Assembly: GCA_021772835.1 (NCBI GenBank) | Contig: JAJFLE010000057.1 | Coordinates: 3,177-67,176, forward strand | From: Mariprofundus sp. | Lineage (GTDB): Bacteria > Pseudomonadota > Zetaproteobacteria > Mariprofundales > Mariprofundaceae | Length of the DNA: 64,000 nucleotides | Direction of reading: 5' to 3' | In this document: piece after piece, positions 11,554 through 61,246 of the stretch | Position numbering within the stretch: the first letter of the stretch is position 1 | How the letters are laid out: each line of letters begins with the position of its first letter | Notes under the pieces: generated by a model | The model's database searches: none | Told to the model about the DNA's origin: nothing | What the model saw: the letters and a program-made list of their open reading frames with translations, nothing else | Program-made: the position numbers and the translations under genes

Positions 11554-11562
11554 AGCCAGCTG

Positions 11563-12543
11563 TCACTCCTCCAGCGTTACCGGGGTGACAAACTCGGGTG
11601 GCTTCACGGCTAGTACTGAGCAATCAATGCTATTGAGTATCTCTTCGGCAGTATTACCCATGATGAACCCGGGTATGCCGGTGCGACCAACAGTTCCCAT
11701 AACGATAAGGTCTGCCTTAATTTTTTTAGCCTGTTTCGGGATGACTGCTCGTGCCCAGCCTTTCACTACATGTACCTCGGGTTTGAGGTAATCGACAGCA
11801 TTGTCTGACTGGCCACTGGCCATTTCATCCAGAAATGCAGCCATACTGTGCTCTTCGCTCTTCTTGACCTGCTTAATGTATGCTTTGATCTCATCCTCTG
11901 GTGTTCGCATGAAGTGGCCACGCATTGCGCTTTCCCCAATAGCATCCCAGGCATGCACAAGGTGCAGTTCAGCAAAATCAGAGAGCGCCAGTGAGCTGGC
12001 CATTTCAAACACCTGCCGGTTCAGCGCCTGTCTGGAATCAAGCTCATGCGACGGGTAAGCATCACCCACATCAACTGCTGCCAGAATACAGCGCCATGAT
12101 TTCTTCGCCTCTGGCTTGATCAGCCAGACCGGACACGGGCATTTGCGCAATAAATGCATATCGTTGCTACCAAAGAGCCTGTGCAACCACGTATGGCTAT
12201 CCGGCGTTTTAATGACCAGGTCATGGCCGTTGCGTAGCACCTCTCTGATGATTTGCAGAAAAGGTACGCCGTTCAATATTCGAGTTGAGATGTCGACATG
12301 GGCTCTAAAGGGATCAAGCAACGTATCCAGAGCCTGCTCATGCGCCTGCTTTACAGCGGCTTGCAAGTCAGCGGGTGACGGACCATCTTCTGGCAGCCTG
12401 ATTCGCCCTTCGATCTGCTTGCCAACGATGGCAACGGTCAGGTTGGCCTGATTACTCTCAGCCAAAGCCACTGCACGTTTAAGGGCTGGCTCGCATGCTG
12501 TGTCTATATCCACTACACATAATATGTTCTTGAATCGTTTCAT
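11563..12543 (-). CDS. tandem universal stress protein (2 x USP domains) embedded in the mrp operon
   Basis: Start moved to the ATG at 12543, with GGAGG 8 nt upstream and 1 nt after the mrpE TAG. The N-terminus is MKRFKNILCVVDIDT. A second USP repeat begins at WRCILAAVDVGD and ends with ADLIVMGTVGRTGIPGFIMGNTAEEILNSIDCSVLAVKP (ATP-binding G-2x-G-9x-G(S/T)-type motif). Confidence 0.85.
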   Translation of the reverse strand: MKRFKNILCVVDIDTACEPALKRAVALAESNQANLTVAIVGKQIEGRIRLPEDGPSPADLQAAVKQAHEQALDTLLDPFRAHVDISTRILNGVPFLQIIREVLRNGHDLVIKTPDSHTWLHRLFGSNDMHLLRKCPCPVWLIKPEAKKSWRCILAAVDVGDAYPSHELDSRQALNRQVFEMASSLALSDFAELHLVHAWDAIGESAMRGHFMRTPEDEIKAYIKQVKKSEEHSMAAFLDEMASGQSDNAVDYLKPEVHVVKGWARAVIPKQAKKIKADLIVMGTVGRTGIPGFIMGNTAEEILNSIDCSVLAVKPPEFVTPVTLEE

Positions 12544-12544
12544 C

Positions 12545-13054
12545 CTATTGACCTCCTTCAGACGCCTGCAAACCCATAACAAATATTCGGGCCACATGTT
12601 GCTCCACCTCTGCAAGCTCCGGATAAATATCATTCCGGCAATCCAGAACGTGCACGGTGAGGATATCCTGGTTGATTCCAGCACTTAATGTGCCGGGTAG
12701 CAAACTTGCAATATTCGCCATCAATACGCGCGGCAATCCTGGTGGTATGCGCAGCGGATATTCAATGAACGCTGGCGCAATGGGTAACATCGGATGATAC
12801 GCACGCCGTGCAACATCGATGCCGCCTAACAAAGAGCGCATGAAAAAAAAGGGTATGAATTTTAGTATCGCATAGCCATTCATCTGCACAGGCAAACCCA
12901 GCCGGATACTCACCCATACTGCCAGCACCACCGCAGGCACACCTATCCACCAGGAGTGAATATTACCATCAGTGAGAATCCACCAGATCAGACTGAATAC
13001 GATGACGCATACAAGAATCGACATCATGCCGGTTTTTAGATATTTCGTCCTCAT
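12545..13054 (-). CDS. mrpE: Mrp/Mnh subunit E
   Basis: 169 aa with two N-terminal TMs, then ...LANIASLLPGTLSAG...VHVLD, typical of the MNHE family. Confidence 0.8.
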   Translation of the reverse strand: MRTKYLKTGMMSILVCVIVFSLIWWILTDGNIHSWWIGVPAVVLAVWVSIRLGLPVQMNGYAILKFIPFFFMRSLLGGIDVARRAYHPMLPIAPAFIEYPLRIPPGLPRVLMANIASLLPGTLSAGINQDILTVHVLDCRNDIYPELAEVEQHVARIFVMGLQASEGGQ

Positions 13055-13109
13055 ATGTAACCTTTATGGTTCATATCTGGTTTCATCAGTGGGTGCATTT
13101 ATAGTCCTG

Positions 13110-35323: not shown

Positions 35324-37465
35324 ATGAACGAGATCGCCAATCATTCAACCCAAAACAAGCTGCACACAATCATGGTCATTGATGACGATGAGATGCTGCG
35401 AGAAGTCATGATTGAGACTCTGCGTGACGATGGGTATGCAGTCGTACAGGCTGGTAATGGCAAGGAAGCTTTAGAAATCCTCGAACAATCAACTCCCGAA
35501 CTGATCCTTGTTGATGTCATGATGCCTGTCATGAACGGCTATGAGTTTTGTAAAAGACTGCGCAAACTGCCAAACGGGCACAATGTGCCCGTCATTATCA
35601 TGACTGGGCAGGGTGATGTTGAGGCCATTGAAACGGCCTTTGATAGCGGCGCCACAGACTTTATCTCAAAACCTGTCAACTGGCACATCATCGGACATCG
35701 AATTCAGTATACCCTACGAGCCAGCCAGGCTATGAAGGAAGCCACCCTGAATGCCAAGCTTCTTTCCGACGCCCAGCGCATAGCCAAGCTGGGCAACTGG
35801 AGTTGGGACACCGGCACCAAGCAAATGCATGTCTCGACAGCGGCGTATCGCATTTTCGGAGTGCCGCACACATCTCCCGGCATATTTTATCAGATGCTAC
35901 GCTCTTCCATCGACTCTGATGACAGCGATGCTTTTGAGCTGGCTATCCAGCAGGCTCAGGGCGGAACCCCTAGCGACGTTGAAATTCAGGTCATTCCGCC
36001 AGACGGCAAATGCCGTTCATTGCACATACATGTCGAACGTGTGCCTGACGGGGGAGTATCCCAACTCTTCGGTACATTTTAGGATATCACTGAGAGAAAA
36101 AATGCAGAGGCAGAAATTCGCCAGCTGGCTTACTACGATGCAGTAACCGGGCTGCCTAACCGAACCCTGTTTAAAGAACACCTGCAAGTTGCCCTGCATC
36201 AGGCAGAGCGAAACGGTACTAAAGTTGCTGTGATGTTTCTGGACCTGGATAACTTCAAACGCATCAACGACAGTCTTGGCCACAAGGCAGGCGACCAGCT
36301 GCTTGAAGAAGTCTCCAGACGACTACAACAAAGCGTCCGCACCACTGACGTCGCAGCAATAGATAAACCCGGAGGCAGTGGTCATTCACTGGCAAGACTT
36401 GGTGGTGATGAATTCACAGTCATGCTCAGTGGCATTAAGGATTTACATCATGTCGGCATCGTTGCCGATCGAATTCTGAAAAACCTGAGTGAACCGGTCA
36501 TGCTGGAAGGAAATCGCGTGGTCGTTACCTCCAGTATAGGCGTTTCAATTTACCCTGAGGATGGCAGTGAAATTGACTCACTGCTCAAACATGCCGATGC
36601 CGCCATGTATCAGGTTAAATATAAAGGGCGCAACGGTGTGTTCTTTTATGATGATGAACTGCGCCAGCAGAGTCAGAATAGAATCCAGCTGGAAGCTGAA
36701 CTGTACAAAGCACTTCAAAATGATGAGATGACGCTGTTTTACCAACCCAAAGTTAACGCCACCACCCAGAAGGTTGAAGGATTTGAAGCACTGATTCGCT
36801 GGATTCATCCGGAAAGAGGCATGGTATCCCCGGCCGATTTCATTCCCGTCGCAGAAGAGTCAGGGCTGATTATTCCGATGGGCAAATGGGTCATTAAAAC
36901 TGCCTGCAAGCAGCTGCAAGCATGGCGCAAAGCAGGTGCAGGGCCGATCACGATGGCTGTAAACATTTCATGCCATCAGTTTGCAGACCATTATCTACTG
37001 GAATCTGTCGAGCAGATTTTCGAAGAGACAGGCGTAGAGCCGGAGCTCATTGAATTTGAACTGACTGAAAGCGTCCTGATGCAGGATGCTGAAACCGCGA
37101 TGAAAGTGCTCAAGGAAATGAAACGCATGGGGCTGAAATTGTCCGTTGATGATTTTGGTACCGGTTATTCAAGCATGAGCTACCTCAAACATTTCCCGTT
37201 GGATGTTATTAAAATTGACCGCTCATTTATCATGGACATTCCACACGATGAACAGGACATGACCATCACCACAGCCATCATCTCTCTGGCCAGGGCCCTG
37301 GAGCTTGGCGTAGTTGCCGAAGGTGTGGAAACTCAGGAGCAGCTGGCCTTCCTTCGCGACTGTGATTGCGAGCAGATTCAGGGCTTCCTGTTCAGCCCCC
37401 CTGTACCCGCTGAAAAAGCTGAGCCTATGATTTACAAACCTTTCTCTATAGGGACAGACGATTAA
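35324..37465 (+). pseudogene. REC-PAS-GGDEF-EAL protein gene interrupted by one in-frame TAG (36080-36082)
   Basis: ORFs 35324..36082 and 36230..37465 are in the same frame. Reading through gives ...[36 protein letters not shown]...MFLDLDNFKRINDSLGH...RLGGDEFTV...FEALIRW...DDFGTGYSS...QGFLFSPP. Apart from the stop, the REC (LVDVMMP), GGDEF and EAL motifs are all intact. Confidence 0.75.
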
Positions 37466-45819: not shown

Positions 45820-47937
45820 ATGAATTGTAGGATAGCCTTCCACCCCATGCTTCAACTGCCCCGTTTATTCCTTATTGCAGCCATACTTGTCGCAGCGCCT
45901 CTCGCCCATGCCGTGCCGGTCGACATTGCCGCAGATGAGATTTCGCGAGATGCCAATGGTGTTGTTGTAGCCAAAGGCAATGTTGTCATCAAGCGAACCA
46001 GCGACACCCTGCGCGCTGATGAAGTCATATATCGAACGGATCAGCAGGTGCTCGAAGCTCGCGGACATGTTGTCATAGAATCCCCTCAGGCAACGATTCA
46101 CGCTGATCAGGCTGTGATGAACACGGACAGTCAAGCCGGTAACATTCAAAATGCTGTTATTACATTACCCGGAGGCGAGCGCCTGCAGGCTGCGCGTGTA
46201 AAACGCATAGATGATCAAACCTTTGAAGCTGAAGAGATCATCTATTCCGCTTGCCCGATAGACGAAGAGTCATGGCGTATCAGGGCAAGCCACGCTCGTC
46301 TGGACCAACAGGATGGCAGCCTGATTACAACAAATGGTCGTTTCGAGCTCTGGGAAATTCCGGTGCTCTACACACCATGGTTGCAACAGTCGCTCAGACG
46401 CAAGTCCGGCCTGCTCATGCCCAGCGTAGGCATTGGCAATCGCAGGGGAACCGAGCTCGGCCTGCCAGTCTATCTTGCTCCATCTGAGAACTGGGATATC
46501 ACCATGACCCCCCGCTGGATGAGCGCACGCGGCTTCATGGGTGAGGCCGAACTTCGCCATGCATCGGGCATCGGCACAGAACGCTTGTCTGCTGCAGGTA
46601 TTAACGACACATTAACAGCCAGATCCCGTTCTCGCCTGCAGGGAGATATCCACTGGGGCCTGCCCGCCGGCTTCAACTTTGATGTCAAGGCAGACCATAT
46701 CAGTGATCGGGATTATCTGGCCGATTTCGCCTCGGAAGATGTGGGCAGCACACGTTATCTGCAAAGTGTGGCGACACTTTCTCAGTCAGGTGTTTATGGA
46801 GATTTCAAGGAGGACTGGGCTCTTATTGCGCAACATCAACAGGACCTGCTTTTAACAAGCAATGCATCAACATTGCAGATTCTACCCCGACTGGAGGGCC
46901 GGATGTTATGGTCACGTCATTCCAACCTGATCTTTGGCCTGGAGCATCAGACAACACGCTTTGATCGCAAGCTTGGCGTAGACGGTTTGCGTATGGACTT
47001 GCACCCCTTCGTTGAAGTCCCGTGGGAACTGGCAGGCGGTGGCATTTCGGCCAAACTGCATGCGGGTAGCCATCACACCCGCTATTGGCTCAAACAGCAA
47101 GCCAATAACACAGCCGCCAATCCGTTCCGCACTAGCGGTGAAGTCAGTCTGGAAGTTCGCAGTGATTTTGAAGGCATCAGCAGCGACCGAACTTGGCGGC
47201 ACGCGATCTCGCCTGTCCTACGTTATGATTATATCAATGTTCCGGATCAAAGCACTCTGCCGAACTTTGATTCGGCATTTGGCCTGCTCGCCTGGAGCAA
47301 TCTGATGTCAGGCAACCGCTTTTCCGGTTTCGACCGCATTGAAAAAGCCAATCGCTTCAGCCTGATTCTGGAAAACCGACTGCAGCATAAACCTGACCCG
47401 GAGACCGCAGCCAGCGATTTCCTGATCATTCGTGGCGGTGCTTCTTACAACCTGCAGCGACAAACCATTGATGCCGCGCTTAAACCTGCTGCAACCAGGC
47501 CCTTCTCAAACCTGCTCGGAGAGGTGGTTTTTCAACCCTTTACCGGCGTCAGCCTGTATAGCTCAGGCCAATACAACACCGTCGACCGCTATTGGGCGAC
47601 ATTAAGTTCAGCCATCAGCCTGAGCGGAGCAACAGGCAACAGCTTGATTGTATCCCACCAGTTCACTGACGCGCGTTACACAACTGAATCACAACTGCTG
47701 AACATCTCTGCCAATCTGCGTCTGGCCAACCGCTGGCAGGCCAGTGGCCGCTGGCAATATGATTTTGTGCAAAAAATCTCCCAACGTACTGCCCTGGAAG
47801 TACAGTATCAGCACCCCTGCTGGAAACTGGGCGCTGAAGGTTATCGCATCAACAGTCGCACAGGCACCGCCAAAGCATCCAATCTGGGCTTCAGAATCTT
47901 GCTTGAATTCAAAGGCTTAGGTAGCGTCGGTTCGTGA
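45820..47937 (+). CDS. lptD: LPS-assembly outer-membrane protein LptD
   Basis: Signal peptide followed by an OstA-like N-terminal domain (ADEISRDANGVVVAKGNVVIK...LRADEVIY) and a large beta-barrel part. It sits immediately upstream of surA-pdxA, as in the canonical locus. Confidence 0.88.
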   Translation: MNCRIAFHPMLQLPRLFLIAAILVAAPLAHAVPVDIAADEISRDANGVVVAKGNVVIKRTSDTLRADEVIYRTDQQVLEARGHVVIESPQATIHADQAVMNTDSQAGNIQNAVITLPGGERLQAARVKRIDDQTFEAEEIIYSACPIDEESWRIRASHARLDQQDGSLITTNGRFELWEIPVLYTPWLQQSLRRKSGLLMPSVGIGNRRGTELGLPVYLAPSENWDITMTPRWMSARGFMGEAELRHASGIGTERLSAAGINDTLTARSRSRLQGDIHWGLPAGFNFDVKADHISDRDYLADFASEDVGSTRYLQSVATLSQSGVYGDFKEDWALIAQHQQDLLLTSNASTLQILPRLEGRMLWSRHSNLIFGLEHQTTRFDRKLGVDGLRMDLHPFVEVPWELAGGGISAKLHAGSHHTRYWLKQQANNTAANPFRTSGEVSLEVRSDFEGISSDRTWRHAISPVLRYDYINVPDQSTLPNFDSAFGLLAWSNLMSGNRFSGFDRIEKANRFSLILENRLQHKPDPETAASDFLIIRGGASYNLQRQTIDAALKPAATRPFSNLLGEVVFQPFTGVSLYSSGQYNTVDRYWATLSSAISLSGATGNSLIVSHQFTDARYTTESQLLNISANLRLANRWQASGRWQYDFVQKISQRTALEVQYQHPCWKLGAEGYRINSRTGTAKASNLGFRILLEFKGLGSVGS

Positions 47938-48011
47938 CATTTCGTTCCTCTAATCGCCCACCGCGCATGCATTCACACAACGTTGTGCGGCCCAGTTCAT
48001 CCGGAGTTTTC

Positions 48012-49721
48012 ATGCGTTCCCTTATTTTGCTTTCAAGCCTGCTGATTTATGTCTCAGTCGCTAAAGCCGAAACATTCGATTCAATCGCAGCCGTTGTTAA
48101 TAACGAAGCCATCAGCTGTTACGAGATTCAGCAAGAAATTCAAACTGCAGTTGCCCAGATACGTCAATCAGGACAAGCATCCCCACTTTCTTATAACGAG
48201 CTGAAATACAGAGCCTTTGATGCAAAAGTCACCAAATTACTGCAAGTTCAGGAAGCTCGCAAACTGGAGCTAAGTGTCACTCAGGAAGAGGTAGACAATG
48301 CCATTCAGAATGTAGAAAGCAGCAACAATCTGTTACCGGGTCAACTCAAGGATGCCATTGCGCAGCAGGGCATGAATTTTGATGATTATAAAGAAACACT
48401 AAAAGACCAGATCCTGATCGGTAAACTCATCAATGTCGCCGTGCGCAGCAAACTGCAAATTTCCGAAGAGTCCATGCGCGAGTATTACCGTAAATATCTG
48501 GCTGTGCCAAAACCTCGCAGAGAAGTGCATCTTGCCCAGATTTTTATGGCAGTGCCAAACGAACCCACACCTGAGCAACTCAATAAGGTTCGTGACAAGG
48601 TTCGCTGGATTCACCAGCAACTTGTTGACGGTACAGACTTCGCCCAAATGGTCGCCACATATTCCCAGTCCGCAGAGAGAGAGCAGAAGGGAGATATGGG
48701 CTGGTTCATGCACGGCGGAATCGCACAGCGCTTCGTGCCCGCACTGGAGTTGCCTGTGAATGCTTTGACTGACCCCATTCGCTCACCATCAGGCTTTCAC
48801 ATTATTAAAGTCCTGGAAGACAGATGGCAGGACACTGAGCAAACTGGTGAAAGTTACGATGAAGCCCATGCCCGGCACATTCTCCTGCAAATCCCTGCTC
48901 TCGCAGATGAGGCCACGGTCGCGAAAATAAGACATCGTGCAGATTCCATTGCAGCCGATATGAAAGGCGCATCTGATGAAGCGTTTGCAAAACGCGCCGA
49001 GGAAGACTCCCAGGGACCTAGCGCCAGCAAGGGCGGGGACCTTGGATGGTTCAAAAGAGGCATGATGATCCCAGCCTTTGAAGAGGCAGCCTTTAAGCTC
49101 AAGGCTGGAGAAACCAGTGGCGTGGTTGAAACTGGTTTTGGACTGCATATTATTCGGCTTGTTGCCCGTCGTCACATTGACCCAAACTCATTTGAAGCGA
49201 ACAAAGACAAGATTCAACAAATTCTGACCGACATTGAAATGCAGGAGCAGCATCCGCACTGGCTGGCTGGTCTGAAGGCAGCAGCAAAAATTGAGAATTT
49301 CAGCTGTGCCGATATAAACATAGGAAGTGCCGCGCCCGTGGTTGAACAGGCTCAGCCAACGACAAACGCTTCTGAGCAACAGATTAGCCCTGAAGCCGTG
49401 GTAAATTCCTGGCTTAAGGCTTGGAGCAGCAAAGACCTGGATGTTTATTTTGCCAACTATTCCGAGCACTTTTACCTTGGTAAATCCCATGCATCTATTG
49501 CTGAGTGGAAAAAATATCGCACCCAGATGATAGAAAACAAAACTTTTATTCGTGTTTCCATCCATGATTTAAAGGTAATTCCGGTTGATGGCAACCATGT
49601 CCGCTGCGAATTCACGCAGAATTATGAATCCGACACATATTCCAACAAAGGTAAAAAATCTCTGATCCTGGAAAAAGAGGGTAATAGTTGGAAAATCGTC
49701 CGTGAGCTAAGCTTTCTCTAA
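48012..49721 (+). CDS. surA: SurA-type periplasmic chaperone/PPIase with an extra C-terminal NTF2/SnoaL-like domain
   Basis: Start at the ATG at 48012 (GGAG 5 nt upstream; signal peptide MRSLILLSSLLIYVSVAKA). It has a SurA N-domain and two parvulin domains (...SPSGFHIIKVLEDR, ...ETGFGLHIIRLVARR). A ~130-aa extension follows: VVNSWLKAWSSKDLDVYFANYSEHF...VRCEFTQNYESDTYSNKGKKSLILEKEGNSWKIVRE. Confidence 0.85.
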   Translation: MRSLILLSSLLIYVSVAKAETFDSIAAVVNNEAISCYEIQQEIQTAVAQIRQSGQASPLSYNELKYRAFDAKVTKLLQVQEARKLELSVTQEEVDNAIQNVESSNNLLPGQLKDAIAQQGMNFDDYKETLKDQILIGKLINVAVRSKLQISEESMREYYRKYLAVPKPRREVHLAQIFMAVPNEPTPEQLNKVRDKVRWIHQQLVDGTDFAQMVATYSQSAEREQKGDMGWFMHGGIAQRFVPALELPVNALTDPIRSPSGFHIIKVLEDRWQDTEQTGESYDEAHARHILLQIPALADEATVAKIRHRADSIAADMKGASDEAFAKRAEEDSQGPSASKGGDLGWFKRGMMIPAFEEAAFKLKAGETSGVVETGFGLHIIRLVARRHIDPNSFEANKDKIQQILTDIEMQEQHPHWLAGLKAAAKIENFSCADINIGSAAPVVEQAQPTTNASEQQISPEAVVNSWLKAWSSKDLDVYFANYSEHFYLGKSHASIAEWKKYRTQMIENKTFIRVSIHDLKVIPVDGNHVRCEFTQNYESDTYSNKGKKSLILEKEGNSWKIVRELSFL

Positions 49722-50765: not shown

Positions 50766-51362
50766 TTGTCATCACAAGGAGGCAACGTGCAGATTAACAA
50801 ACTCGCCGGGCAGTTGCTTCTGGCAACCCCTTCTCTGCAGGATCCGAACTTCAAGGATTCCGTGGTATTGATCTGCCATCATGACGATGATGGCTGCATG
50901 GGGCTGATCATTAATCGACCGCAGGATATCTCTTTGTCAGATGTACTCATTGATCTCGGCCTTCAGAACAAACAAAGCCTTGCTGATCAAAGCAATAAAG
51001 AGATTCAACGTGTGTTTGAAGGTGGGCCTGTTGATGATTTTCGCGGTTTTGTGCTGCATGACAGCTGGCAAGTCTACGACTCAACCATGGAGATCACACC
51101 TGAGTTGTTTCTGACTTCGTCGCGTGATGTACTTGAGGATCTGGCTCAGGGAGAGGGCCCTGAACATTACATGTTAATTCTGGGTTACGCAGGTTGGCAA
51201 ACAGGACAACTGGAAAGTGAACTATTCAACAACGACTGGCTGATTGCACCAGCCAGCCAACGTATCGTCTTTCAGGAACCACCGGAACAGCGCTGGGACT
51301 TTGGCGCACGATGCATGGGTTTCGAGCGCAGCCAACTATCGGACCAGATTGGTCACGCCTGA
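50766..51362 (+). CDS. YqgE/AlgH-family protein (UPF0301)
   Basis: Carries LAGQLLLATPSLQDPNFKDSVVLICHHDDDGCMGLIINRP...GGPV...LGYAGWQTGQLESE. Confidence 0.85.
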   Translation: MSSQGGNVQINKLAGQLLLATPSLQDPNFKDSVVLICHHDDDGCMGLIINRPQDISLSDVLIDLGLQNKQSLADQSNKEIQRVFEGGPVDDFRGFVLHDSWQVYDSTMEITPELFLTSSRDVLEDLAQGEGPEHYMLILGYAGWQTGQLESELFNNDWLIAPASQRIVFQEPPEQRWDFGARCMGFERSQLSDQIGHA

Positions 51363-51373
51363 CGCAAAGACAA

Positions 51374-52717
51374 TCAGCAGACTCTTTCTCTGATTGCCTC
51401 GGTTAACTGCCCACCAATATTGAGCATTATAGTCTCATCCTCAGCTTCAACCATCACTCTGATCTTCGGCTCTGTGCCTGACATGCGCACATTGATACGC
51501 CCACTTCCACCCAGATGCCGCTCAGCATCGCAGATAAGTTTCTGCACCTGCTCATCAGCCAACACATCCTTAGGCTCGCTCATCATGATATTCCATAACT
51601 TTTGCGGAAACAGCGACATGCCAGCAGCCATCTCTGCAAGAGCTTTATTCTGCTCCTGCATGGCCGTAAGTAACTGTAGCGCCGTCATCACCCCGTCTCC
51701 GGTTGTATTGTGGTCCAGTAAAATCATGTGCCCGGATTGTTCGCCACCAACATTACAGCCTGTCTCTCGCATCATTTCGAGCACGTAACGATCACCCACT
51801 GCAGCCCTGAACATGGAAAGCCCTATACCTTCCAGGTAACGCTCCAGCCCCATATTGCTCATCAGAGTCGTCACAACAGCTCCGCCCGTCAGCTGCCCCT
51901 TCTTGTGAGCATGTTCTGCCAAAATGGCAATCACACGGTCACCATCAACAATGCAACCCTGAGCATCGCAGGCGATCAGACGGTCAGCATCGCCATCGAA
52001 TGCCAGCCCGACATCCGCACCGACATCGACCACCTTCTGCATCATACTCTCCGGGTGGGTTGATCCGCATTCACGGTTAATATTAAATCCGTCCGGTTCG
52101 TCAAACATGGCAATCACATCACAACCAAGTTCGCGCAAAATACGCGGCCCAACGTCATAGGCTGCACCATTGGCACAGTCGACCACGACTTTCAAACCAT
52201 CGAGCCGCAAGCCTCGTGGCAACGAACCCTTTAAAAATTCTATATAGCGACCTCGTGCATCTTCAACGCGTGCCGCTTTACCGACCGCAAGGGCCGCTGG
52301 CAAAGGAGGAAGCTTATCCAGGCAGGCTTCTATCTCCAGCTCAATCTCATCCGCCAACTTGAAGCCATCGGCAGCAAAAAACTTGATGCCATTATCGCCT
52401 GCAGGATTGTGCGAGGCCGACAACATGACGCCTGCATCCGCCCGTAAGCTGCGAGTCAGGTATGCGACTGCGGGTGTAGGCACTGGCCCTACAAGCAACA
52501 CACTCATACCTTGTGCAGTTAATCCGGCACATAGAGCCGATTCGATCATATAGCCGGAAAGCCGTGTATCTTTACCGATCAGGATTCGGGGCTGATGATC
52601 CAGGTGCTGAGTCAGAACATGGCCAGCAGCACGCCCCAGAGCCAAAGAAAACTCTGCCGTCATCGGAAACTGATTGACCGGGCCACGCACGCCATCGGTG
52701 CCAAAATAACGTCTCAT
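51374..52717 (-). CDS. glmM: phosphoglucosamine mutase
   Basis: Carries MRRYFGTDGVRG...GVMLSASHNPAGDNGIKFF (phosphoserine loop)...FDGDADR. ATGA overlap with the upstream cdaR-like gene. Confidence 0.95.
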   Translation of the reverse strand: MRRYFGTDGVRGPVNQFPMTAEFSLALGRAAGHVLTQHLDHQPRILIGKDTRLSGYMIESALCAGLTAQGMSVLLVGPVPTPAVAYLTRSLRADAGVMLSASHNPAGDNGIKFFAADGFKLADEIELEIEACLDKLPPLPAALAVGKAARVEDARGRYIEFLKGSLPRGLRLDGLKVVVDCANGAAYDVGPRILRELGCDVIAMFDEPDGFNINRECGSTHPESMMQKVVDVGADVGLAFDGDADRLIACDAQGCIVDGDRVIAILAEHAHKKGQLTGGAVVTTLMSNMGLERYLEGIGLSMFRAAVGDRYVLEMMRETGCNVGGEQSGHMILLDHNTTGDGVMTALQLLTAMQEQNKALAEMAAGMSLFPQKLWNIMMSEPKDVLADEQVQKLICDAERHLGGSGRINVRMSGTEPKIRVMVEAEDETIMLNIGGQLTEAIRERVC

Positions 52718-53412
52718 TTCTGCTCTCCTCCACCCAAACCATCCGGTAAAACCGGTGCATCTGTTTGCACCAGCACACCACGCACATCAATTTTCACCTT
52801 GCCTTCAACCAGCCGAATCGCCTTGCCGGACGGACTTTCAACTCCAGAGCTCGCCTTAAAAGGACCCGCCTTCAAGGACGGACGAATCGGTGTGGTTTCT
52901 ACCTTTCTTAAGGTGTCCAGCCAGACTTCAGGCCCAATCAGGTGCACCTGTTGCGGCTCAACAGTGACGGAGGCTGCCTTCCAGCCTTCAGGTAGCTCAA
53001 AGTGTGCTTTCACAGGAATAGACCGGGTCACCAACCTGTCCACCTGCAGCTCCAGCCTGTCCGGCTGCACCTTCTCGATATGTAAACCGACAGGCAGAGA
53101 CACTGATGAAACTTGCAGCGCACGCTCAACCACACCTGGAGTGGTGATATCACTGACCATGATAGGCAGCGACATATCCTGTTGGTGCAGATCCTTCAAA
53201 CGTGATTGTAAGCCCGTCACCGTAACACGCACATGATCCGGCAAATCATTGACGATCACCATACCTGCTGGCAAACCCTGAATTTGCAATGGAACATCCA
53301 TACTCAAAGAACCTTCACCCTGGCCATGTACCTGCAACCACAGTGCAATGGCAATAATAATGGCCCAGATGTGCAGATTAAATTTTCGGAACTGACTGAC
53401 AAACAAGCGCAT
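52714..53412 (-). CDS. cdaR: YbbR-domain protein (CdaR-like regulator of diadenylate cyclase)
   Basis: N-terminal TM (HIWAIIIAIALWL) followed by repeated beta-rich YbbR-like modules (VPLQIQGLPAGMVIV...VRVTVTG..., IPVKAHFELPEGWKAASVTVEPQQVHLIGP). It is sandwiched between cdaA and glmM with 1-nt and 4-nt overlaps. Confidence 0.7.
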   Translation of the reverse strand: MRLFVSQFRKFNLHIWAIIIAIALWLQVHGQGEGSLSMDVPLQIQGLPAGMVIVNDLPDHVRVTVTGLQSRLKDLHQQDMSLPIMVSDITTPGVVERALQVSSVSLPVGLHIEKVQPDRLELQVDRLVTRSIPVKAHFELPEGWKAASVTVEPQQVHLIGPEVWLDTLRKVETTPIRPSLKAGPFKASSGVESPSGKAIRLVEGKVKIDVRGVLVQTDAPVLPDGLGGGEQK

Positions 53413-54209
53413 CAGACTTTGTCTGCCGTTTCAGCAGATTTCCCCTGTGAATAAAGCACGGATGACAGTGTTTTTTCCAGGGCCTGATGCAATTCCCGGC
53501 TGTTAAGCGACTCGCCCAATTGCCCCTCTTCAACCAGATGAACGTCACCCCGCTCTTCAGACACCACAATCACCAGCGCATCACTCTCTTCGGACAAGCC
53601 GACAGCGGCACGATGCCGTGTGCCGAAATTACCGGGGAGGGCCGTCACCTGAGCCAGAGGAAGCAACACACGTGCAGCGACAACTCGCCCTCCGCGAGCA
53701 TCCCGGCAAACAATAACCGCCCCATCATGCATAGGGGCATCAGGGCAAAATATGGCTTGTATGACATCCGGTCGAATGGGCGCATTCATTTCAACACCGG
53801 ATTCGAACAAGTGGCGCAGGCCAGTTTCACGTTCAATCACAATCAGGCCACCCCAACCACGGTGCACCAGAGAAAAAGCCGACTCTACCAATTCATCGAG
53901 CATGGCTACTGTTGGTGTAGTACCGGATGAAAGTGGATTGACCGCCACACGCACCAGAGCACGACGAATTTCCTGCTGAAAAAGTACAACCAGAATCACC
54001 ATAAAAGCGGAAAAGAAGTGCCCGAATATCCATTCAACCGTAAACAGACCAAACACCTGAGATAACTGATAAACAACCACAACCATGGCAACGCCAATCA
54101 ACATCTGCACTGCACGAGTGCCACGAATCAAGCGTAAAAAGAAATAGACCACGATGGCCACCACCGTGATGTCGAAGACATCAGAAAGTCCAAACTGCCA
54201 GCCGCTCAT
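53412..54209 (-). CDS. cdaA: membrane-anchored diadenylate cyclase (CdaA/DacA type)
   Basis: Three N-terminal TMs followed by a DAC domain: GWGGLIVIERETGL, MHDGAVIV (DGA motif) and GTRHRAAVGLSEESDALVIVVSEERG (RHR motif). Confidence 0.9.
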   Translation of the reverse strand: MSGWQFGLSDVFDITVVAIVVYFFLRLIRGTRAVQMLIGVAMVVVVYQLSQVFGLFTVEWIFGHFFSAFMVILVVLFQQEIRRALVRVAVNPLSSGTTPTVAMLDELVESAFSLVHRGWGGLIVIERETGLRHLFESGVEMNAPIRPDVIQAIFCPDAPMHDGAVIVCRDARGGRVVAARVLLPLAQVTALPGNFGTRHRAAVGLSEESDALVIVVSEERGDVHLVEEGQLGESLNSRELHQALEKTLSSVLYSQGKSAETADKV

Positions 54210-54276
54210 GAGTCTGCCTTCTTGTTCATCCCAGTAAGGGTAGTTCGATTAAGCACGCATGCAAGCACCAACATAT

Positions 54277-55095
54277 TCAGGACAGGGCTGATGCCACTTT
54301 AATCGCTCTTCGCTGCAACTTCACATCATGCACTCGCAGCACATCTGCTCCGTGTATAATGCCTGCAGCCCCGGCCACCGCCGTTTCAACTTCACGATCA
54401 TCAACAGTACATCCGGTAAGCAAACCGAGGAAAGATTTTCTCGAAACACCGAGCAGTACAGGCATGGAAAATCGATCTTTGAATTCAGCCAGCGACCGGA
54501 TCAGTGTCAGGTTATCTTCAAGTCGTTTACCAAAACCGATACCCGGATCAAGCAAGATTGAAGAAGCCTGAATACCCGCGGCCAAGGCCACATTGATTCT
54601 TTCTGCGAAAAAAGCTGCCACCTCCTCGATCACATCATCGTATTGCGGCCTGTGCTGCATAGTTTCTGGATTTCCCAGCATATGCATCAGGCACACATCG
54701 ACACCCGACCCGGCAACCACAGCAAGGCTTCCGGGGTCATGTGTGAGCGCGCTGACATCGTTCACCATCACCGCTCCGGCGGCAATCGCCTGCGCCATGA
54801 CTTCAGCCTTCATGGTATCAATGGATACGGCACAGCCATGTCTGCTCAGCTCACGCACTACAGGAATTACACGTCCCAGTTCATCGTCTACAGTTACTCT
54901 CGCAGCTCCCGGGCGGGTAGACTCCCCCCCCACATCCAGCAGACGGGCTCCATCATGCCACATGGAGAGACCGTGATTTACTGCAGCATCGACATCGACA
55001 AAACTACCGCCGTCCGAAAACGAGTCGGGGGTGCAATTAAGCACCCCCATAATCCACGCTTCACCATCAACCGGACGGTGCCACAGTGAAGGCAT
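54277..55095 (-). CDS. folP: dihydropteroate synthase
   Basis: Carries IMGVLNCTPDSFSDGG...LDVGGESTRPGA...SIDT...VNDVS...DPGIGFGK. Confidence 0.94.
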   Translation of the reverse strand: MPSLWHRPVDGEAWIMGVLNCTPDSFSDGGSFVDVDAAVNHGLSMWHDGARLLDVGGESTRPGAARVTVDDELGRVIPVVRELSRHGCAVSIDTMKAEVMAQAIAAGAVMVNDVSALTHDPGSLAVVAGSGVDVCLMHMLGNPETMQHRPQYDDVIEEVAAFFAERINVALAAGIQASSILLDPGIGFGKRLEDNLTLIRSLAEFKDRFSMPVLLGVSRKSFLGLLTGCTVDDREVETAVAGAAGIIHGADVLRVHDVKLQRRAIKVASALS

Positions 55096-57029
55096 CAGTG
55101 AACCTGCCCAGCCTCATCACCTGATGATTTTTCCTGTTCAGGCTCCTTGCCAACATCTACTTTTGCAGAAGGCTCTTCAGGCGGTCTTTTGCCAGGAGAT
55201 GCCGGTTTCTGCTCGAACTCCTTGATCAGCAACGGCTCCTTACCTTCCATCACACGATCAATATCGGTCGTGTCCAGCGTCTCATATTTGATCAACCCCT
55301 TTGCCAGCAGGTGCAACTGATCCATGTGCTCTATGAGAATATTCTTGGCACGGTCGTAGTTATCTTCAATCAGCTGGCGAACCACGACATCAATCTTGCG
55401 TGCTGTCTCTTCCGAGATATTGGTCTGACGGGTAATTTCACGACCCAGGAATGGCTCGTGCTCGCGTTCACCATATACCATAGGCCCCATCTCATCGGAC
55501 ATGCCCCACTGGGTCACCATGTTGCGCGCCAGTTGTGTCGCACGTTCGAAATCATTGGAAGCACCGGTCGTCATCTGCCCCAGCACCAGCTCTTCGCCGA
55601 GACGCCCACCCATCATGATAGATATCTGGTCACGCAGATATTCCTTATCATGATTGAATTTGTCTTCTGTCGGCATCTGCATGGTAATACCGAGGGCCTG
55701 ACCACGCGGAATAATACTCACCTTATGCACCGGATCTGCATTTTTCAGGTATTTAGCCACCAGCGTATGACCAGCTTCATGATATGCCGTAGTCTTCTTC
55801 TGATCATCGGAGATCAACATGGAACGACGCTCGGTACCCATCATCACCTTGTCTTTGGCCGTTTCAAAGTCGGCACGGCCCACCTTGTCACGATCGAAAC
55901 GGGCCGCATTCAGCGCCGCCTCATTGACCAGATTGGCCAGATCAGCGCCAGAGAAACCCGGCGTACCGCGTGCCAGCTCCTTGGTATCCACATCAGATGC
56001 CAATGGCACTTTACGCATGTGAACTTTCAGGATCTGATCGCGGCCCAACAGATCCGGACGCGGCACAGTGACCTGACGGTCAAAACGACCAGGGCGTAGC
56101 AAAGCCGGATCGAGCACATCGGGACGGTTGGTGGCAGCCACCAGAATGACGCCTTCATTGGATTCAAAACCATCCATTTCAACCAGCATCTGATTCAACG
56201 TCTGTTCGCGCTCATCGTTGCCGCCACCGATACCGGCGCCGCGATGACGCCCCATGGCATCAATTTCATCGACAAAGATAATGCATGGCGCATGTTTTTT
56301 GGCCTGTTCGAACATATCGCGCACACGCGATGCACCAACACCAACAAACATCTCCACAAAATCGGAACCGGAGATTGAATAAAACGGCACTTCCGCTTCC
56401 CCGGCAATGGCACGCGCCAACAGCGTTTTACCAGTACCCGGAGGGCCAACCAGCAAAACGCCTTTTGGAATTTTACCACCAAGGCGGGTAAACTTGGATG
56501 GATCACGAAGGAACTCGATGACCTCAGTTACCTCCTGCTTGGCCTCATCACATCCGGCCACATCTTCAAAGGTGACTCGCGCAGTATTCTCATTGAGCAA
56601 TTTGGCCTTACTCTTACCAAAGCCCATGGCACCACCTTTACCACCGCCCTGCATCTGGCGCATAAAGAATACCCACACGCCGATCAGCAGCAGCATTGGG
56701 AACCAGGAGATCAGTATGGAAAGAAGGAACGGCACTTCGTCCGCCTCTTTGACATTCACCACTACTTTATTATCCAGCAGACGCTGCGTCATGGACGGAT
56801 CATTCGGTACGTTGACATCGAAGTTCCTCAGATCACCGGATTTATCACGATATTGACCGATAACCTGCTTGTCTTTGATGGTTGCCGATTCAACCATGCC
56901 GTTATCCACCTTCTCGATAAAGGTGGAATAAGCCATTTTATCGGCCTTCGACATTGGTGCCGAAAACATATTAAACAGGCTCATCATGGTCAGGCCTATA
57001 ACCAGCCACAGCAGTAAATTCTTACCCAT
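55095..57029 (-). CDS. ftsH: ATP-dependent zinc metalloprotease FtsH
   Basis: Two N-terminal TMs, Walker [12 protein letters not shown], Walker B IIFVDEID, the SRH region and the zinc motif HEAGHT. 644 aa. Confidence 0.97.
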
Positions 57030-57141
57030 TGATTCTAATCCTCTTGCCCGTCAAAACGGGCTTAAAATATCTGTTGTCACGCAAGCGTGGCCTATTATGC
57101 ATGAAAGTTCGATTAAATAATAAACCTATTTATTCTAATAT

Positions 57142-58113
57142 TCACCCGGCTCTGACAGTCTGCAGGTGCAGGCGCCCTTGAGCTCTATAGAGTCGGCAAC
57201 GGGACAAATCAAGTCCCCCCCGTGCCTTTTTCGACGTCCATGTTTCAACCAGTTCGATATGACGCCGCCCGGGAGTACTACCTTCGCCAAGCACGATAAC
57301 CATAATTTTCTGCAACACACGTGCCCGCACAGGCGGCGAGCTTGCACACCAGGCCTGCCAAGAGAGGGAGGCCACACCCTGTTCATGCAACAGATCATTT
57401 TCCAGCATTTTTTCCGCTGCCGTATCCAACCTGTCAGTAAGACAGTCAGCCTGAACTTTCCAGCGCAAAAACAGCTGGCGGGGCTGATATCCAGCCTGAT
57501 GCATGGCAGAAAAATCTCTCGCCCTTATCCGATTGCGCCACAAGCCTGAATCATCGTTGCTGGGATCTTCCAGCCATTCAACTTCAGCCTCTCTTAAAGC
57601 CTCTTTCAGCATGTTACCCTGCACATGCAACAGTGGGCGCAGCAATCTTAATGTTCCAAGCATACGTTCGTTATGCATGCCCCGGCAGCCTGCCGCCCCT
57701 GCCCCTTGCAGCATACGCATATAAACAGTCTCAGCCTGATCATCCAGATGATGACCCAGACACAAAACATTCACATCAAGCTCTTGTCCCCAGCGTGCAA
57801 ACTGCGCATAACGGCCAGCTCTGGCCTCAGCCTCCATATTCTTACCGGTTGGTTCATCCAGCCTGGTTGAATAAAACGGAATACCCCACTGCTCTGCTCT
57901 GTTCGCCAGCAGCGCGGTTTCATCATGGGAAAATGATCGCCATGCATGGTCCACATGCCAAGCCTGGAGCTGGCATCCAGTCGATTTCAGAGCCAGTAAC
58001 AAAGCGGTTGAATCAGCCCCGCCCGACCAGCCCACAGCCACCGTTTGTGAGGTCGTAAAAATAGTCTGACCATCCAGCCAGCCATTGAATATTTCAGATT
58101 GCATGTTTTGCAT
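57142..58113 (-). CDS. tilS: tRNA(Ile)-lysidine synthetase
   Basis: PP-loop VGWSGGADSTALLL, then GHHLDDQAET. 323 aa, a short form without the long C-terminal domain. Confidence 0.88.
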   Translation of the reverse strand: MQNMQSEIFNGWLDGQTIFTTSQTVAVGWSGGADSTALLLALKSTGCQLQAWHVDHAWRSFSHDETALLANRAEQWGIPFYSTRLDEPTGKNMEAEARAGRYAQFARWGQELDVNVLCLGHHLDDQAETVYMRMLQGAGAAGCRGMHNERMLGTLRLLRPLLHVQGNMLKEALREAEVEWLEDPSNDDSGLWRNRIRARDFSAMHQAGYQPRQLFLRWKVQADCLTDRLDTAAEKMLENDLLHEQGVASLSWQAWCASSPPVRARVLQKIMVIVLGEGSTPGRRHIELVETWTSKKARGGLDLSRCRLYRAQGRLHLQTVRAG

Positions 58114-60320
58114 CAGATCCAGCGAACCAGCCCATGATCAATAATATTTTGGGTTGCAACAGCATCTTCATCCAGCAGCTCGAACAGATCCACATCAAGA
58201 CCCGCCAGACACGGCTTACCGACCTTCATCAACACCCATGGCTTCTGCTTGTGCTCACCGTAGCGCTGAATCACGCATAGCTCCAGACCGCAAGCTGGCA
58301 AGCGGTAGCCATCGAGTACCCCGGCAATATCCCTCGGATTCGGGTGTATTTCCCGGATGGTCGCCTTGCCGGACAACACCGAGCTCAACTCTTGCCTGGC
58401 TGAAGCTGTCAGTGCGAAACCTGCATTATGCAACACCTGAACCTTGCCTCCGTCGCTACCCTGTACCGGCTCCACATTAACACCGCCAATCGGCTTCGGA
58501 GCATGCTTGCCAACACATGCGTTGATCAAACGCTCACCATTACTATCCCTGCATACGCCAGCCTCGACCTGAGGCACTGCCAGTGAAAAGACTATGCGCT
58601 GGACGCCGAGCCCTGCATGTTGATGCTCAGAAAATGCCCACTCTCCAGTCATATCCATACACATGGAAAGCTGCGGCAAATTCAGCTGCGCGATACTATC
58701 AGCTTCCTGCTTACACGCCTGCCGATACAGGTGATGCAAAGACTTGCGCATTGCGATGCCGGTTTCAGTTAATGATAACACCGAGCCACGCAACAGGCAG
58801 CCGGATGCTGAACAGCTATCAAGGAAAACATCTTTCTTTGCTTCGACAATAGACAACACATTCGGCAAAAATATCTTATCAAGAAATTCGGCCGCAGATG
58901 AGCCGGACAGGACATGCATTCTGGCCAGATAATCGGACCACTCGATACGCATGCAGCCATGCCGCTGCGACAGTGCCTTACCGCTATGCAGCGCTTTGCT
59001 CACATCAGGCTGAATCAGAACCAGATCTCCATTCTGCCATGCTGCCTCAAGATCATGGGCCACCTGAATATTCGCACCACTGCGCAAAGCACCTATGGCA
59101 CGCGTAACGGAAGCTGCCCCCGAAGTCTTATTCGCAACAGCGCTTTTATCTACCCAGAATATTTCGGCCTCACGTCTGGCTATTTCTACCCGTACATCTT
59201 CATCAAATACCCTGAAAGCAAGCAAGGTAATATTATCACGCAACCACGGCTCGCCTGCATTTTTTACAGCTTTACCACCAGCCAATTGCGCCAGCAGCCA
59301 TGCAGCGACCGGCTCATTGATATTGGCTTTCAGATTCTCGATAGAAGCAGCATCAGGTTGAACCTGCCCGGCTAATAGTTTGTCCAATTGTTTGGCATCG
59401 AGCACCCAGCGCATCCAGGCGCCATGCCCGGATTTCAAGGCAAGCTTCCATAGCGACAGTCGTGCCCAGCAACGCCGCAACAAATGTTGCCCCAGCTTAT
59501 CCTTTGCAAGCAGAGCCAGCATGCCACCTTCATTTTTAAAGCCGACCTTACTACGCAGATAACGCAACTGCGGCACGATCTCAGGCTCAAGCCCATAAAG
59601 CCGAATCAACTGGCTGTCATCAGCCAAAAGGTTCGATTCCGGCTGATGGTGCAAAAACACCATGGGGGTAACCGGCAACATCATTGATTCATAAGAGGCA
59701 ATGCGCGAAACCTCGACCACACCTTCCATGTATCGTTTAAGAAATTCCTGTAGAGCCCAAAGATACAAACCGCCAACCACACACAACATGACGTGGTTAC
59801 TGGTACCACTTTCTTCATTCGATAACGCAGCCATTCCATTTCTAATCATCTTCAACAGCAGCACATTCACAGCGGGCACCCAGGGGGCTGCATCCATCCG
59901 ATCCTGCTTCCAGCCCTGTTCCCACAATTTCTCGCAAACCTGCAGCAGAGCAGTGGCTCCTTTCGGGTCGGCACACCAGTGATGCAGCATATCTCGCGAC
60001 AGATGTGGATTTTGCTTGCGCAGGTATGTAACCATCGACCTGATGCGATCATCCATAACAGGCAGCACATGAGCGGAGACCTTCTCCCCTTTCACCATAT
60101 AACGAATGGCGTAATCCTGCAGTCGGTGCAGTGAACCCGAAATAGCCGTCTTGATTTCGGGATGAACGGCGTAGGGAATATATTCACAGGCGTCCTTTCC
60201 CGACACACGAATGGGCAAACGTCTCACATCAACCGCACAGCGATCGGACGGCTGTTCCTGTCGGTTCAGAACAGGGCTATACCAGCTCCAGCGAAATGAA
60301 AAATAGTCTGGTGAAATCAT
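58113..60320 (-). CDS. 735-aa soluble protein of unknown function, translationally coupled to tilS
   Basis: Long uninterrupted ORF on the strand of its neighbours. Its stop overlaps the tilS ATG (TGATG, 58115..58111). It has no TM segments or signal peptide, and I can assign no catalytic or binding motif by eye. Confidence 0.75.
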   Translation of the reverse strand: MISPDYFSFRWSWYSPVLNRQEQPSDRCAVDVRRLPIRVSGKDACEYIPYAVHPEIKTAISGSLHRLQDYAIRYMVKGEKVSAHVLPVMDDRIRSMVTYLRKQNPHLSRDMLHHWCADPKGATALLQVCEKLWEQGWKQDRMDAAPWVPAVNVLLLKMIRNGMAALSNEESGTSNHVMLCVVGGLYLWALQEFLKRYMEGVVEVSRIASYESMMLPVTPMVFLHHQPESNLLADDSQLIRLYGLEPEIVPQLRYLRSKVGFKNEGGMLALLAKDKLGQHLLRRCWARLSLWKLALKSGHGAWMRWVLDAKQLDKLLAGQVQPDAASIENLKANINEPVAAWLLAQLAGGKAVKNAGEPWLRDNITLLAFRVFDEDVRVEIARREAEIFWVDKSAVANKTSGAASVTRAIGALRSGANIQVAHDLEAAWQNGDLVLIQPDVSKALHSGKALSQRHGCMRIEWSDYLARMHVLSGSSAAEFLDKIFLPNVLSIVEAKKDVFLDSCSASGCLLRGSVLSLTETGIAMRKSLHHLYRQACKQEADSIAQLNLPQLSMCMDMTGEWAFSEHQHAGLGVQRIVFSLAVPQVEAGVCRDSNGERLINACVGKHAPKPIGGVNVEPVQGSDGGKVQVLHNAGFALTASARQELSSVLSGKATIREIHPNPRDIAGVLDGYRLPACGLELCVIQRYGEHKQKPWVLMKVGKPCLAGLDVDLFELLDEDAVATQNIIDHGLVRWI

Positions 60321-60430
60321 AGATTTGGCATGTTCCTTTCATTCCCTCTTTTAATCAAGTTGCGATAGCAACAACACGGCCAAACAAATCCATAGATGGA
60401 CTTTTCCGGTATCATGCTAGCATTGCCCGC

Positions 60431-61246
60431 ATGCCCGTTCACTTTCGCACCGTAGCTACGCTTTTTTTATCTCTGACACTGTCTCTGGCAGCACCATTTA
60501 TGGCGCCTGCAGCAGAGATTGCGGTCACGCTGCCACCACTGGCTGGACTGGTGAAAATGCTGGACAGAGAGTCAGAAGTGATGTGCCTGTTGCCAGCGGG
60601 CGCTGATCCGCACCACTTCCAGATGCAGCCACGTACGATTGAAAGACTGGCCAAAAGTCATCTGTTGATTCGTGCCACCTTTGATGATGGCGGCTGGCCA
60701 TTGCCACCGAATCATAACAACGTACTCGACGTCTGGCCTGACAAAGATCACGGATGGGTCAGCCCGAAAGAAGTACGCCTTATTTTACCCGCTATGGCTG
60801 AAGCGCTGATCAAGCTGCAACCAGATCAGAGCGAATCGATCAAGCACAATCTCGATCTGGCGATGGCAATAACAGACAAGATAGAGCAGCAGTGGCAGAA
60901 GACGCTGGCTCCGGCCAAGGCATCGGGTGTCATCATGCAACATCCATCCTGGCGCCGACTGATGAACGACATGCAGGTGCCGATACTGAATGTGCTTGAG
61001 TCAGGTCAGCACGGTCATGAACACGGACCGCATGCGCTCGATCAATCCCTGCACCGGCTTGAAGAGCACCCAAAAGCCTGGCTGATCAGCGATGCAGGCC
61101 ACAGCAACCGCGCACTGGACTGGCTGAAGCAACACAGTGATCAAACCCCGCGCCAGATCACACTGGATGCGCTGGGTGAATGCGGCACGCCATGGGATCA
61201 ACTGATGCTGCAAAACTTGCAGCAGATTTCAGGGCAGGGTCACTGA
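60431..61246 (+). CDS. znuA: Zn/Mn-type metal ABC transporter substrate-binding protein
   Basis: Signal peptide, then LPPLAGLV...GADPHHFQ and a His/acidic loop SGQHGHEHGPH. It is followed by its cognate ATPase and permease. Confidence 0.82.
   Translation: MPVHFRTVATLFLSLTLSLAAPFMAPAAEIAVTLPPLAGLVKMLDRESEVMCLLPAGADPHHFQMQPRTIERLAKSHLLIRATFDDGGWPLPPNHNNVLDVWPDKDHGWVSPKEVRLILPAMAEALIKLQPDQSESIKHNLDLAMAITDKIEQQWQKTLAPAKASGVIMQHPSWRRLMNDMQVPILNVLESGQHGHEHGPHALDQSLHRLEEHPKAWLISDAGHSNRALDWLKQHSDQTPRQITLDALGECGTPWDQLMLQNLQQISGQGH

Follow-up and report, generated by a model that had tools for sequence, protein, structure and literature searches.

Comparison with described systems

In Bacillota, a membrane-anchored diadenylate cyclase (CdaA, for cyclic di-AMP, c-di-AMP), a YbbR-domain protein (CdaR) and phosphoglucosamine mutase (GlmM) are encoded in this order, as ybbP-ybbR-glmM in Bacillus subtilis, as dacA-ybbR-glmM in Staphylococcus aureus and likewise in Listeria monocytogenes. 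In B. subtilis, Arg126 of CdaA binds Asp151, Glu154 and Asp195 of GlmM, and the substitution R126A removes both complex formation and inhibition (PMC8573169; Pathania 2021). The GlmM proteins of Escherichia coli and Pseudomonas aeruginosa, in which Arg takes the D151 position, fail to bind S. aureus DacA (PMC8573169). Activation of DacA requires YbbR in Chlamydia trachomatis, where no interaction between DacA and GlmM was seen (PMC12422730). Gammaproteobacteria, and Proteobacteria generally, are largely devoid of diadenylate cyclases (PMC10118264; PMC12901056). Here we describe a cdaA-cdaR-glmM module in 64,000 nucleotides of Mariprofundus sp. (Zetaproteobacteria; assembly GCA_021772835.1, contig JAJFLE010000057.1, positions 3,177 to 67,176), hereafter called the window, whose numbering is used throughout. 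We consider it highly probable that this is an ordinary, inherited chromosomal module for c-di-AMP synthesis, lying in an old tilS-ftsH-folP-cdaA-cdaR-glmM block that is common to many Gram-negative phyla.

The module consists of the three genes of the Bacillota operon, in the order found there. The likeness extends to the three transmembrane (TM) segments of the CdaA_N region and the DAC domain of CdaA with its DGA and RHR motifs and the equivalent of Arg126, to the N-terminal TM segment and YbbR domain of CdaR, and to a four-domain GlmM with the SASHNP active-site serine loop. On the other hand, the window CdaA is only about 33-34% identical to the Bacillota enzymes and carries a four-residue insertion after DGAVIV, GlmM has R150 in place of D151 of B. 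subtilis, and the module lies downstream of tilS-ftsH-folP. CdaR of B. subtilis has about 480 amino acids with several repeats, whereas that of the window has 232, with one clear YbbR repeat and a second that is degenerate.

The Chlamydia system is similar in that a Gram-negative three-TM DacA and a single-TM YbbR are encoded in one operon and that GlmM lacks the Firmicute-type interaction residues (PMC12422730). However, that operon is bicistronic and unlinked to glmM, folP or ftsH, and its c-di-AMP and its need for YbbR were shown experimentally, whereas those of the window are predictions. The E. coli cluster, rlmE-ftsH-folP-glmM-secG with folP overlapping glmM, has in common with the window ftsH-folP upstream, glmM downstream on the same strand and the R/D/E residues of GlmM discussed below, but it lacks cdaA-cdaR, and tilS is not adjacent there.

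The cdaA-cdaR-glmM module and its gene block

The cdaA gene (53412-54209, minus strand) encodes a protein of 265 amino acids. Pfam CdaA_N (PF19293) matched residues 5-81 (5.5e-9, 36.5 bits against a cut-off of 23.8), and DAC (PF02457) matched residues 111-230 (2e-34, 118.2 bits against a cut-off of 27); the membrane part consists of three N-terminal hydrophobic stretches within residues 6-79. The catalytic motifs are D162-G163-A164 in MHDGAVIV and R198-H199-R200 in GTRHRAAVG. Across 121 zetaproteobacterial sequences, DGA, GTRHRAA and the SEE motif were at least 98% conserved, and the D, H and first R of these motifs were invariant in 269 homologues from outside the class. R117, also at least 98% conserved in the zetaproteobacterial sequences, is the equivalent of B. 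subtilis R126; it stands 45 residues ahead of the DGA Asp, as R126 does ahead of D171. The best PDB match was 9g69_C, a full-length CdaA crystallised with GlmM (4.5e-39). On this evidence, CdaA is an intact three-TM diadenylate cyclase with all catalytic motifs, and it is predicted to be active. Two CdaA subunits meeting head to head would condense two ATP to c-di-AMP.

The score of CdaA against TIGR00159 ('diadenylate cyclase CdaA') was 186.1 bits, 2.7 bits short of the curated cut-off of 188.8. This shortfall, together with the lack of any recognisable degradation enzyme or receptor gene in the window, might be taken to mean that CdaA is a non-catalytic relic, which no longer makes c-di-AMP and is kept as a scaffold with GlmM and FtsH. 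Nevertheless, the Ser and Glu of the SEE motif, DGA and RHR are invariant or nearly so in the 121 zetaproteobacterial and 269 outside sequences, CdaA can be aligned over its full length with the model and with solved CdaA structures without gaps that would disrupt it, and CdaA is strongly conserved across zetaproteobacterial sequences (63-90% identity). These features make the relic the least credible of the explanations that we considered. The TIGR00159 alignment is nearly of full length (residues 8-247 on model positions 11-249 of 254), and a score below the cut-off fits the fact that NCBI names the Mariprofundus proteins 'diadenylate cyclase' and not CdaA. As a separate observation, the four-residue insertion in zetaproteobacterial CdaA falls at residues ~169-177, directly after the DGAVIV strand, where CRDARGGRV stands in place of QGNKI or KEGKI of the solved Firmicute CdaA proteins.

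The cdaR gene (52714-53412, minus strand) encodes the short YbbR-domain protein. Pfam YbbR (PF07949) matched residues 40-123 (1.1e-12, 48.5 bits against a cut-off of 22.3), and a second, degenerate YbbR-like repeat at about 139-176 matched weakly (20.3 bits, E 7e-4). Comparison of the two domains by hhalign placed them in register (E 0.004), although the probability was low, at 8%. An N-terminal anchor is indicated by a hydrophobic stretch at 11-29 and by an AlphaFold2 helix at 2-29 (predicted local distance difference test, pLDDT, 79-93); apart from this helix, the single-sequence model was unusable (pLDDT 38). By analogy with characterised homologues, CdaR would face the periplasm and act on CdaA through the membrane parts of the two proteins, probably as an activator; activation is the better guess because the YbbR protein of Chlamydia is needed to activate DacA. 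The short form of CdaR, of about 218-236 amino acids, is common to all zetaproteobacterial loci and to three loci from outside the class (L035, L036 and L040, below). In addition, a Candidatus Binatia metagenome-assembled genome (MAG; L033, 13-1161) has a single open reading frame (ORF) of 382 amino acids in which CdaA_N and DAC are joined to a YbbR-like region at the C-terminus (a weak match, 19.6 bits); this ORF may be a natural CdaA-CdaR fusion or may reflect a missed stop or a frameshift.

The glmM gene (51374-52717, minus strand) encodes 447 amino acids with all four PGM_PMM Pfam domains and a TIGR01455 score of 619.1 bits against a cut-off of 447.55. The cdaA stop and the cdaR start share one nucleotide in TGATG, and the cdaR stop and the glmM start share four in ATGA; the junctions point to translational coupling of cdaA with cdaR and of cdaR with glmM. 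A preliminary description of this DNA, made from the letters alone, had recognised a cyclase gene at 53412-54209 with three TM segments and the DGA and RHR motifs, followed by a YbbR gene and glmM with these same overlaps, and Pfam, TIGR01455, hydrophobicity, motif conservation and the junction sequences all confirm it; the DAC and YbbR profile searches that it proposed both gave scores above the Pfam cut-offs. It had also placed the module between folP and glmM, which are neighbours in E. coli, and this is borne out by the gene order and the E. coli comparison.

According to the ORF listing, six minus-strand genes lie within 51374-58113, in the order tilS, ftsH, folP, cdaA, cdaR and glmM. The first is tilS for tRNA(Ile)-lysidine synthase (57142-58113; Pfam ATP_bind_3, 2.8e-45), followed by ftsH for an AAA+ zinc metalloprotease (55095-57029; Pfam Peptidase_M41, AAA and FtsH_ext) and folP for dihydropteroate synthase (54277-55095; Pfam Pterin_bind, 7e-83; TIGR01496, 311 bits), all three on the minus strand. 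The ftsH stop and the folP start also form TGATG, while a gap of 67 nucleotides separates folP from cdaA, with a GAAGG ribosome-binding site ahead of cdaA. Predicted promoters and terminators in 51000-60600 were no more numerous than in shuffled sequence and were uninformative. Upstream of tilS there is a minus-strand ORF of 735 amino acids (58113-60320), whose stop shares one nucleotide with the tilS start and which matches no Pfam family (best E 0.088). This ORF is conserved ahead of tilS in most zetaproteobacterial loci (47-78% identity) and was not seen in the blocks of other phyla; in this the zetaproteobacterial genomes differ from the Desulfobacterota and Nitrospirota blocks.

Distribution in Zetaproteobacteria

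The window CdaA is 90% identical to the protein of Mariprofundus micogutta ET2, and the best 120 database clusters for CdaA belong, wherever they are named, to Mariprofundus, Mariprofundaceae or Zetaproteobacteria. A scan of one genome per species gave 26 zetaproteobacterial loci. It is evident that the module is general among them: the YbbR gene directly follows cdaA in all 26, and glmM comes next in all 20 that extend far enough. Moreover, folP precedes cdaA in 25 of the 26, with ftsH and tilS also present wherever the contig reaches. The exception is Mariprofundus ferrooxydans PV-1 (L015, 1-6000), where folP-ftsH-tilS is missing upstream and cdaA-ybbR-glmM is intact. The genes upstream of cdaA in PV-1 encode RNase R, a tyrosine recombinase (Phage_integrase family) and citrate synthase, and this region suggests a local rearrangement.

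The cdaA-cdaR-glmM module is therefore ordinary for an iron-oxidising, Mariprofundus-type zetaproteobacterium. The preliminary description had made the novelty of the module depend on its not being standard in the lineage, and with cdaA and a YbbR gene in every one of the 26 loci this novelty is gone. Several Mariprofundus proteins have already been named 'diadenylate cyclase' by NCBI, though the literature that could be searched contained no publication on c-di-AMP or diadenylate cyclase in either Zetaproteobacteria or Mariprofundus.

Occurrence of the block in other phyla and origin of the module

Blocks of the same kind occur in other Gram-negative phyla. In a Desulfovibrio MAG (L027) the order is ftsH-folP-cdaA-YbbR (306 amino acids)-glmM, and in a Desulfuromonadaceae MAG (L035) it is tilS-ftsH-folP-cdaA-YbbR (236 amino acids)-glmM. 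A 'Deltaproteobacteria bacterium' MAG (L038) has tilS-ftsH-folP-cdaA-YbbR up to the contig end, which falls before glmM. In a Nitrospirota-like contig (L040) the order is tilS-hpt-(HD protein)-ftsH-folP-cdaA-YbbR (226 amino acids)-glmM; the CdaA of this contig forms a tight group with a protein of Nitrospirota. Partial blocks were found in 'bacterium HR30' (tilS-ftsH-...-cdaA-ybbR-glmM, L039), in Thermodesulfovibrionales (cdaA-ybbR-glmM, L036) and in a further locus (ftsH-cdaA-ybbR-glmM, L037). In L027 and in L035-L040 alike, cdaR directly follows cdaA. The taxon labels of these loci are the submitters' names. The Desulfobacterota and Nitrospirota blocks agree with the window in gene order, including the upstream housekeeping genes, and in the start/stop overlaps, while their CdaA is only 38-45% and their CdaR 26-29% identical. 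In organisation, the closest relatives of the module are these uncharacterised blocks and not the Firmicute operon.

The arrangement was also frequent in a metagenome sample of 80 diverse CdaA loci, all but one 34-45% identical to the window protein. In this sample, which has a bias in favour of the query profile and is without taxon labels, folP lies directly upstream of cdaA in 32 of 53 assessable loci, ftsH is found upstream in 23 of 34, glmM stands one gene downstream of cdaA in 37 of 46, and the full ftsH-folP-cdaA-x-glmM order was seen in 11 of 27. Adjacency of folP and glmM has been reported in Proteobacteria only, and most Spirochaetes have a diadenylate cyclase gene next to folP (PMC6335563). 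Because the block occurs in Desulfobacterota, Nitrospirota-like and metagenomic loci, we regard it as old, and a deletion is the better explanation of the E. coli order. The block would thus be older than the Zetaproteobacteria, and by parsimony we infer that the folP-glmM order of Gamma- and Betaproteobacteria is a remnant left after cdaA-cdaR was deleted in their line, following the split from Zetaproteobacteria.

To place CdaA, 1.84 billion representative proteins were searched. Beyond the zetaproteobacterial proteins there was one more zeta-like cluster at 57% identity, then a gap, and the next matches were at 45% or less. Among the 20 nearest representative clusters, only four taxa were named, namely SAR324, Bdellovibrionota, Verrucomicrobiae and Dormibacteraeota; a profile search for CdaA relatives also brought in Nitrospirota, Desulfuromonadaceae and other groups. 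When 49 sequences were placed in a neighbour-joining tree with 100 bootstraps, zetaproteobacterial CdaA was monophyletic in 100 of 100 and stood on a long branch within a Gram-negative assemblage, outside which fell one Firmicute CdaA and three Negativicutes sequences (32-34% identity). The window CdaA is about 40-45% identical to homologues of Gram-negative phyla (up to 208 bits) and about 33-34% to Firmicute CdaA (137.6 bits). The GC content of cdaA and ybbR (0.52), that at third codon positions (GC3, 0.50-0.53) and their codon usage were indistinguishable from those of 15 other genes of the window.

The preliminary description had proposed that a Firmicute-style module was inserted into a proteobacterial cluster. 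Such a horizontal acquisition, which would have brought Firmicute-style regulation by CdaR and GlmM with it, accords with the gene triplet and order of the Bacillus, Listeria and Staphylococcus operon, with the scarcity of DAC genes in most Proteobacteria (PMC12901056; PMC10118264) and with the retained Arg126 equivalent of CdaA. However, Firmicute CdaA proteins are the most distant of those compared, the whole block including folP, ftsH and tilS is common to Desulfobacterota and Nitrospirota, and the module is present in every zetaproteobacterial locus examined. Moreover, CdaR is of the short form of about 230 amino acids, the genes show no compositional anomaly, and the only glmM encodes a protein closer to that of E. 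coli (52%) than to that of B. subtilis (46%), with the E. coli-type R150. We therefore consider the Firmicute insertion very improbable, and this part of the preliminary description is abandoned. Its companion question, of vertical or horizontal descent, received only part of an answer from the tree: the zetaproteobacterial clade is separate and without Firmicute affinity, and an ancient transfer keeps a small probability. What it had said on the absence of c-di-AMP signalling from most Gamma- and Betaproteobacteria agrees with the reviews (PMC10118264; PMC12901056).

Two candidate origins were rejected on their own grounds. Recent horizontal transfer was dismissed because cdaA and ybbR match the 15 window genes in GC, GC3 and codon-usage distance, and a Firmicute origin on the PDB and tree comparisons, in both of which the Firmicute enzymes were furthest away.

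Several points tell against an old inherited block, among them the ancient transfer just mentioned. The zetaproteobacterial ancestor may have gained cdaA-cdaR, or folP-cdaA-cdaR-glmM, from a donor like Desulfobacterota, Nitrospirota or SAR324 at a time when the proteobacterial ancestor was already without c-di-AMP. Among the named hits, the module appears to be confined, within Proteobacteria sensu stricto, to Zetaproteobacteria, the nearest relatives of their CdaA are non-proteobacterial, and replacement by recombination would be easy between a donor and a recipient that have identical flanking genes. We nevertheless think this unlikely, though clearly less so than an insertion from Firmicutes, because no donor stands out (the best outsiders reach about 45% and are spread across SAR324, Bdellovibrionota, Verrucomicrobiae, Desulfobacterota and Nitrospirota, and the zetaproteobacterial clade has its own long branch), FtsH, FolP and GlmM show no donor-like affinity, the composition is fully native, and a deletion from folP-cdaA-cdaR-glmM accounts more simply for the folP-glmM adjacency specific to Proteobacteria (PMC6335563).

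The neighbour-joining tree gives the zetaproteobacterial clade no firm sister group, and the distances of FtsH, FolP and GlmM to E. coli equal those to Desulfobacterota, so these proteins cannot tell the scenarios apart. The bias of the metagenome sample, the submitter-given taxon names and the TIGR00159 score count on the same side, and synthesis of c-di-AMP by the zetaproteobacterial CdaA is itself predicted from genes and homologues. In addition, the search for other parts of the pathway gave nothing within the 64-kb window. Pfam annotation of about 45 window ORFs revealed no DHH/DHHA1, PgpH-type HD, RCK_C or PII-like receptor domain, and an Rfam search of the whole window at gathering thresholds found neither ydaO/kimA nor any other family. 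The preliminary description had advised looking for phosphodiesterases, riboswitches and receptors throughout the genome; this was carried out for the window, where none was found.

Even with these points, we hold to the old inherited block. A bolder form of it is, in our opinion, evenly poised. It states that, within Proteobacteria sensu stricto, Zetaproteobacteria alone keep the ancestral folP-cdaA-cdaR-glmM order, as a living intermediate. After the zetaproteobacterial split, the ancestor of Alpha-, Beta- and Gammaproteobacteria would have lost c-di-AMP signalling when these two genes were deleted, the folP-glmM adjacency and the derived sul2-glmM linkage would be the scar of this deletion, and control of CdaA would be CdaR-dependent or exerted via another GlmM interface.

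The module itself is routine, and its value is modest, evolutionary and comparative. It places genes for c-di-AMP synthesis in a class of a phylum that is usually described as lacking this messenger, and it suggests when and by which route, deletion between folP and glmM, the messenger was lost in other classes. The cultivable iron-oxidisers M. ferrooxydans and M. micogutta are candidates for studying c-di-AMP in relation to a proteobacterial envelope.

GlmM and its contact with CdaA

The window GlmM is 52% identical to the proteins of E. coli and Desulfuromonadaceae and 46% to that of B. subtilis. Its R150, D153 and E196 correspond to D151, E154 and D195 of the B. subtilis protein and make up the E. 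coli pattern. The same R/D/E residues were found in all seven zetaproteobacterial GlmM proteins aligned (the window and six other loci) and in the cdaA-linked GlmM proteins of Desulfuromonadaceae (L035), Thermodesulfovibrionales (L036) and the Nitrospirota-like contig (L040). The Desulfovibrio protein (L027) has Lys/Asp/Glu at the three contact positions, and those of two HR30/Margulisiibacteriota-type loci deviate, with N/A/E and P/H/A.

By these alignments, the GlmM-CdaA salt bridge of Firmicutes is not conserved in the Gram-negative cdaA-linked GlmM proteins compared. Direct inhibition of CdaA by GlmM in the Firmicute manner seems doubtful in Mariprofundus, because the acidic partner of CdaA Arg126 in the B. 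subtilis complex is replaced by Arg here. A point on the opposite side is that CdaA keeps R117, so some contact with GlmM is possible. The conserved tight coupling with glmM may serve co-expression with envelope-precursor synthesis, or it may reflect a different interface; in the former case, co-translation with GlmM would couple the output of c-di-AMP to the supply of envelope precursors. The Arg of cdaA-linked GlmM in Gram-negative phyla would, if the bolder reading above is true, imply an uncharacterised mode of CdaA control.

Other genes in the window

A cluster for a Mrp-type multisubunit cation/proton antiporter lies on the minus strand at 5481-15830 (Proton_antipo_M three times, MbhD/MnhB and MNHE). 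It is interleaved with a gene for a tandem universal stress protein (11563-12684), after which comes a P-type cation ATPase gene (13110-15830). Ion transporters and universal stress protein domains are targets of c-di-AMP elsewhere. The KdpD-type c-di-AMP motif (SxS...FTAxY) was absent from the tandem universal stress protein and from all six frames of the window.

With regard to other signalling genes, the EAL-HDOD protein and the hybrid kinase listed in the preliminary description were found again, but its REC-PAS-GGDEF-EAL protein is not encoded by one gene. In this region (35324-37465, plus strand) an in-frame TAG at 36080-36082 interrupts the reading frame at the PAS/GGDEF junction ('...LFGTF*DITERKNAEAEI...'). 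It leaves a REC-PAS ORF of 252 amino acids, and in the following GGDEF-EAL ORF the GGDEF match begins only at profile position 36. The TAG could be a nonsense mutation, the mark of a pseudogene or a sequencing error.

Finally, a SurA homologue of 595 amino acids is encoded on the plus strand at 47934-49721 in an lptD-surA-pdxA cluster. It has two peptidyl-prolyl isomerase domains and, at residues 487-591, a C-terminal NTF2-like domain (Cds6_C, 9.4e-19; SnoaL_3, 1.2e-5).

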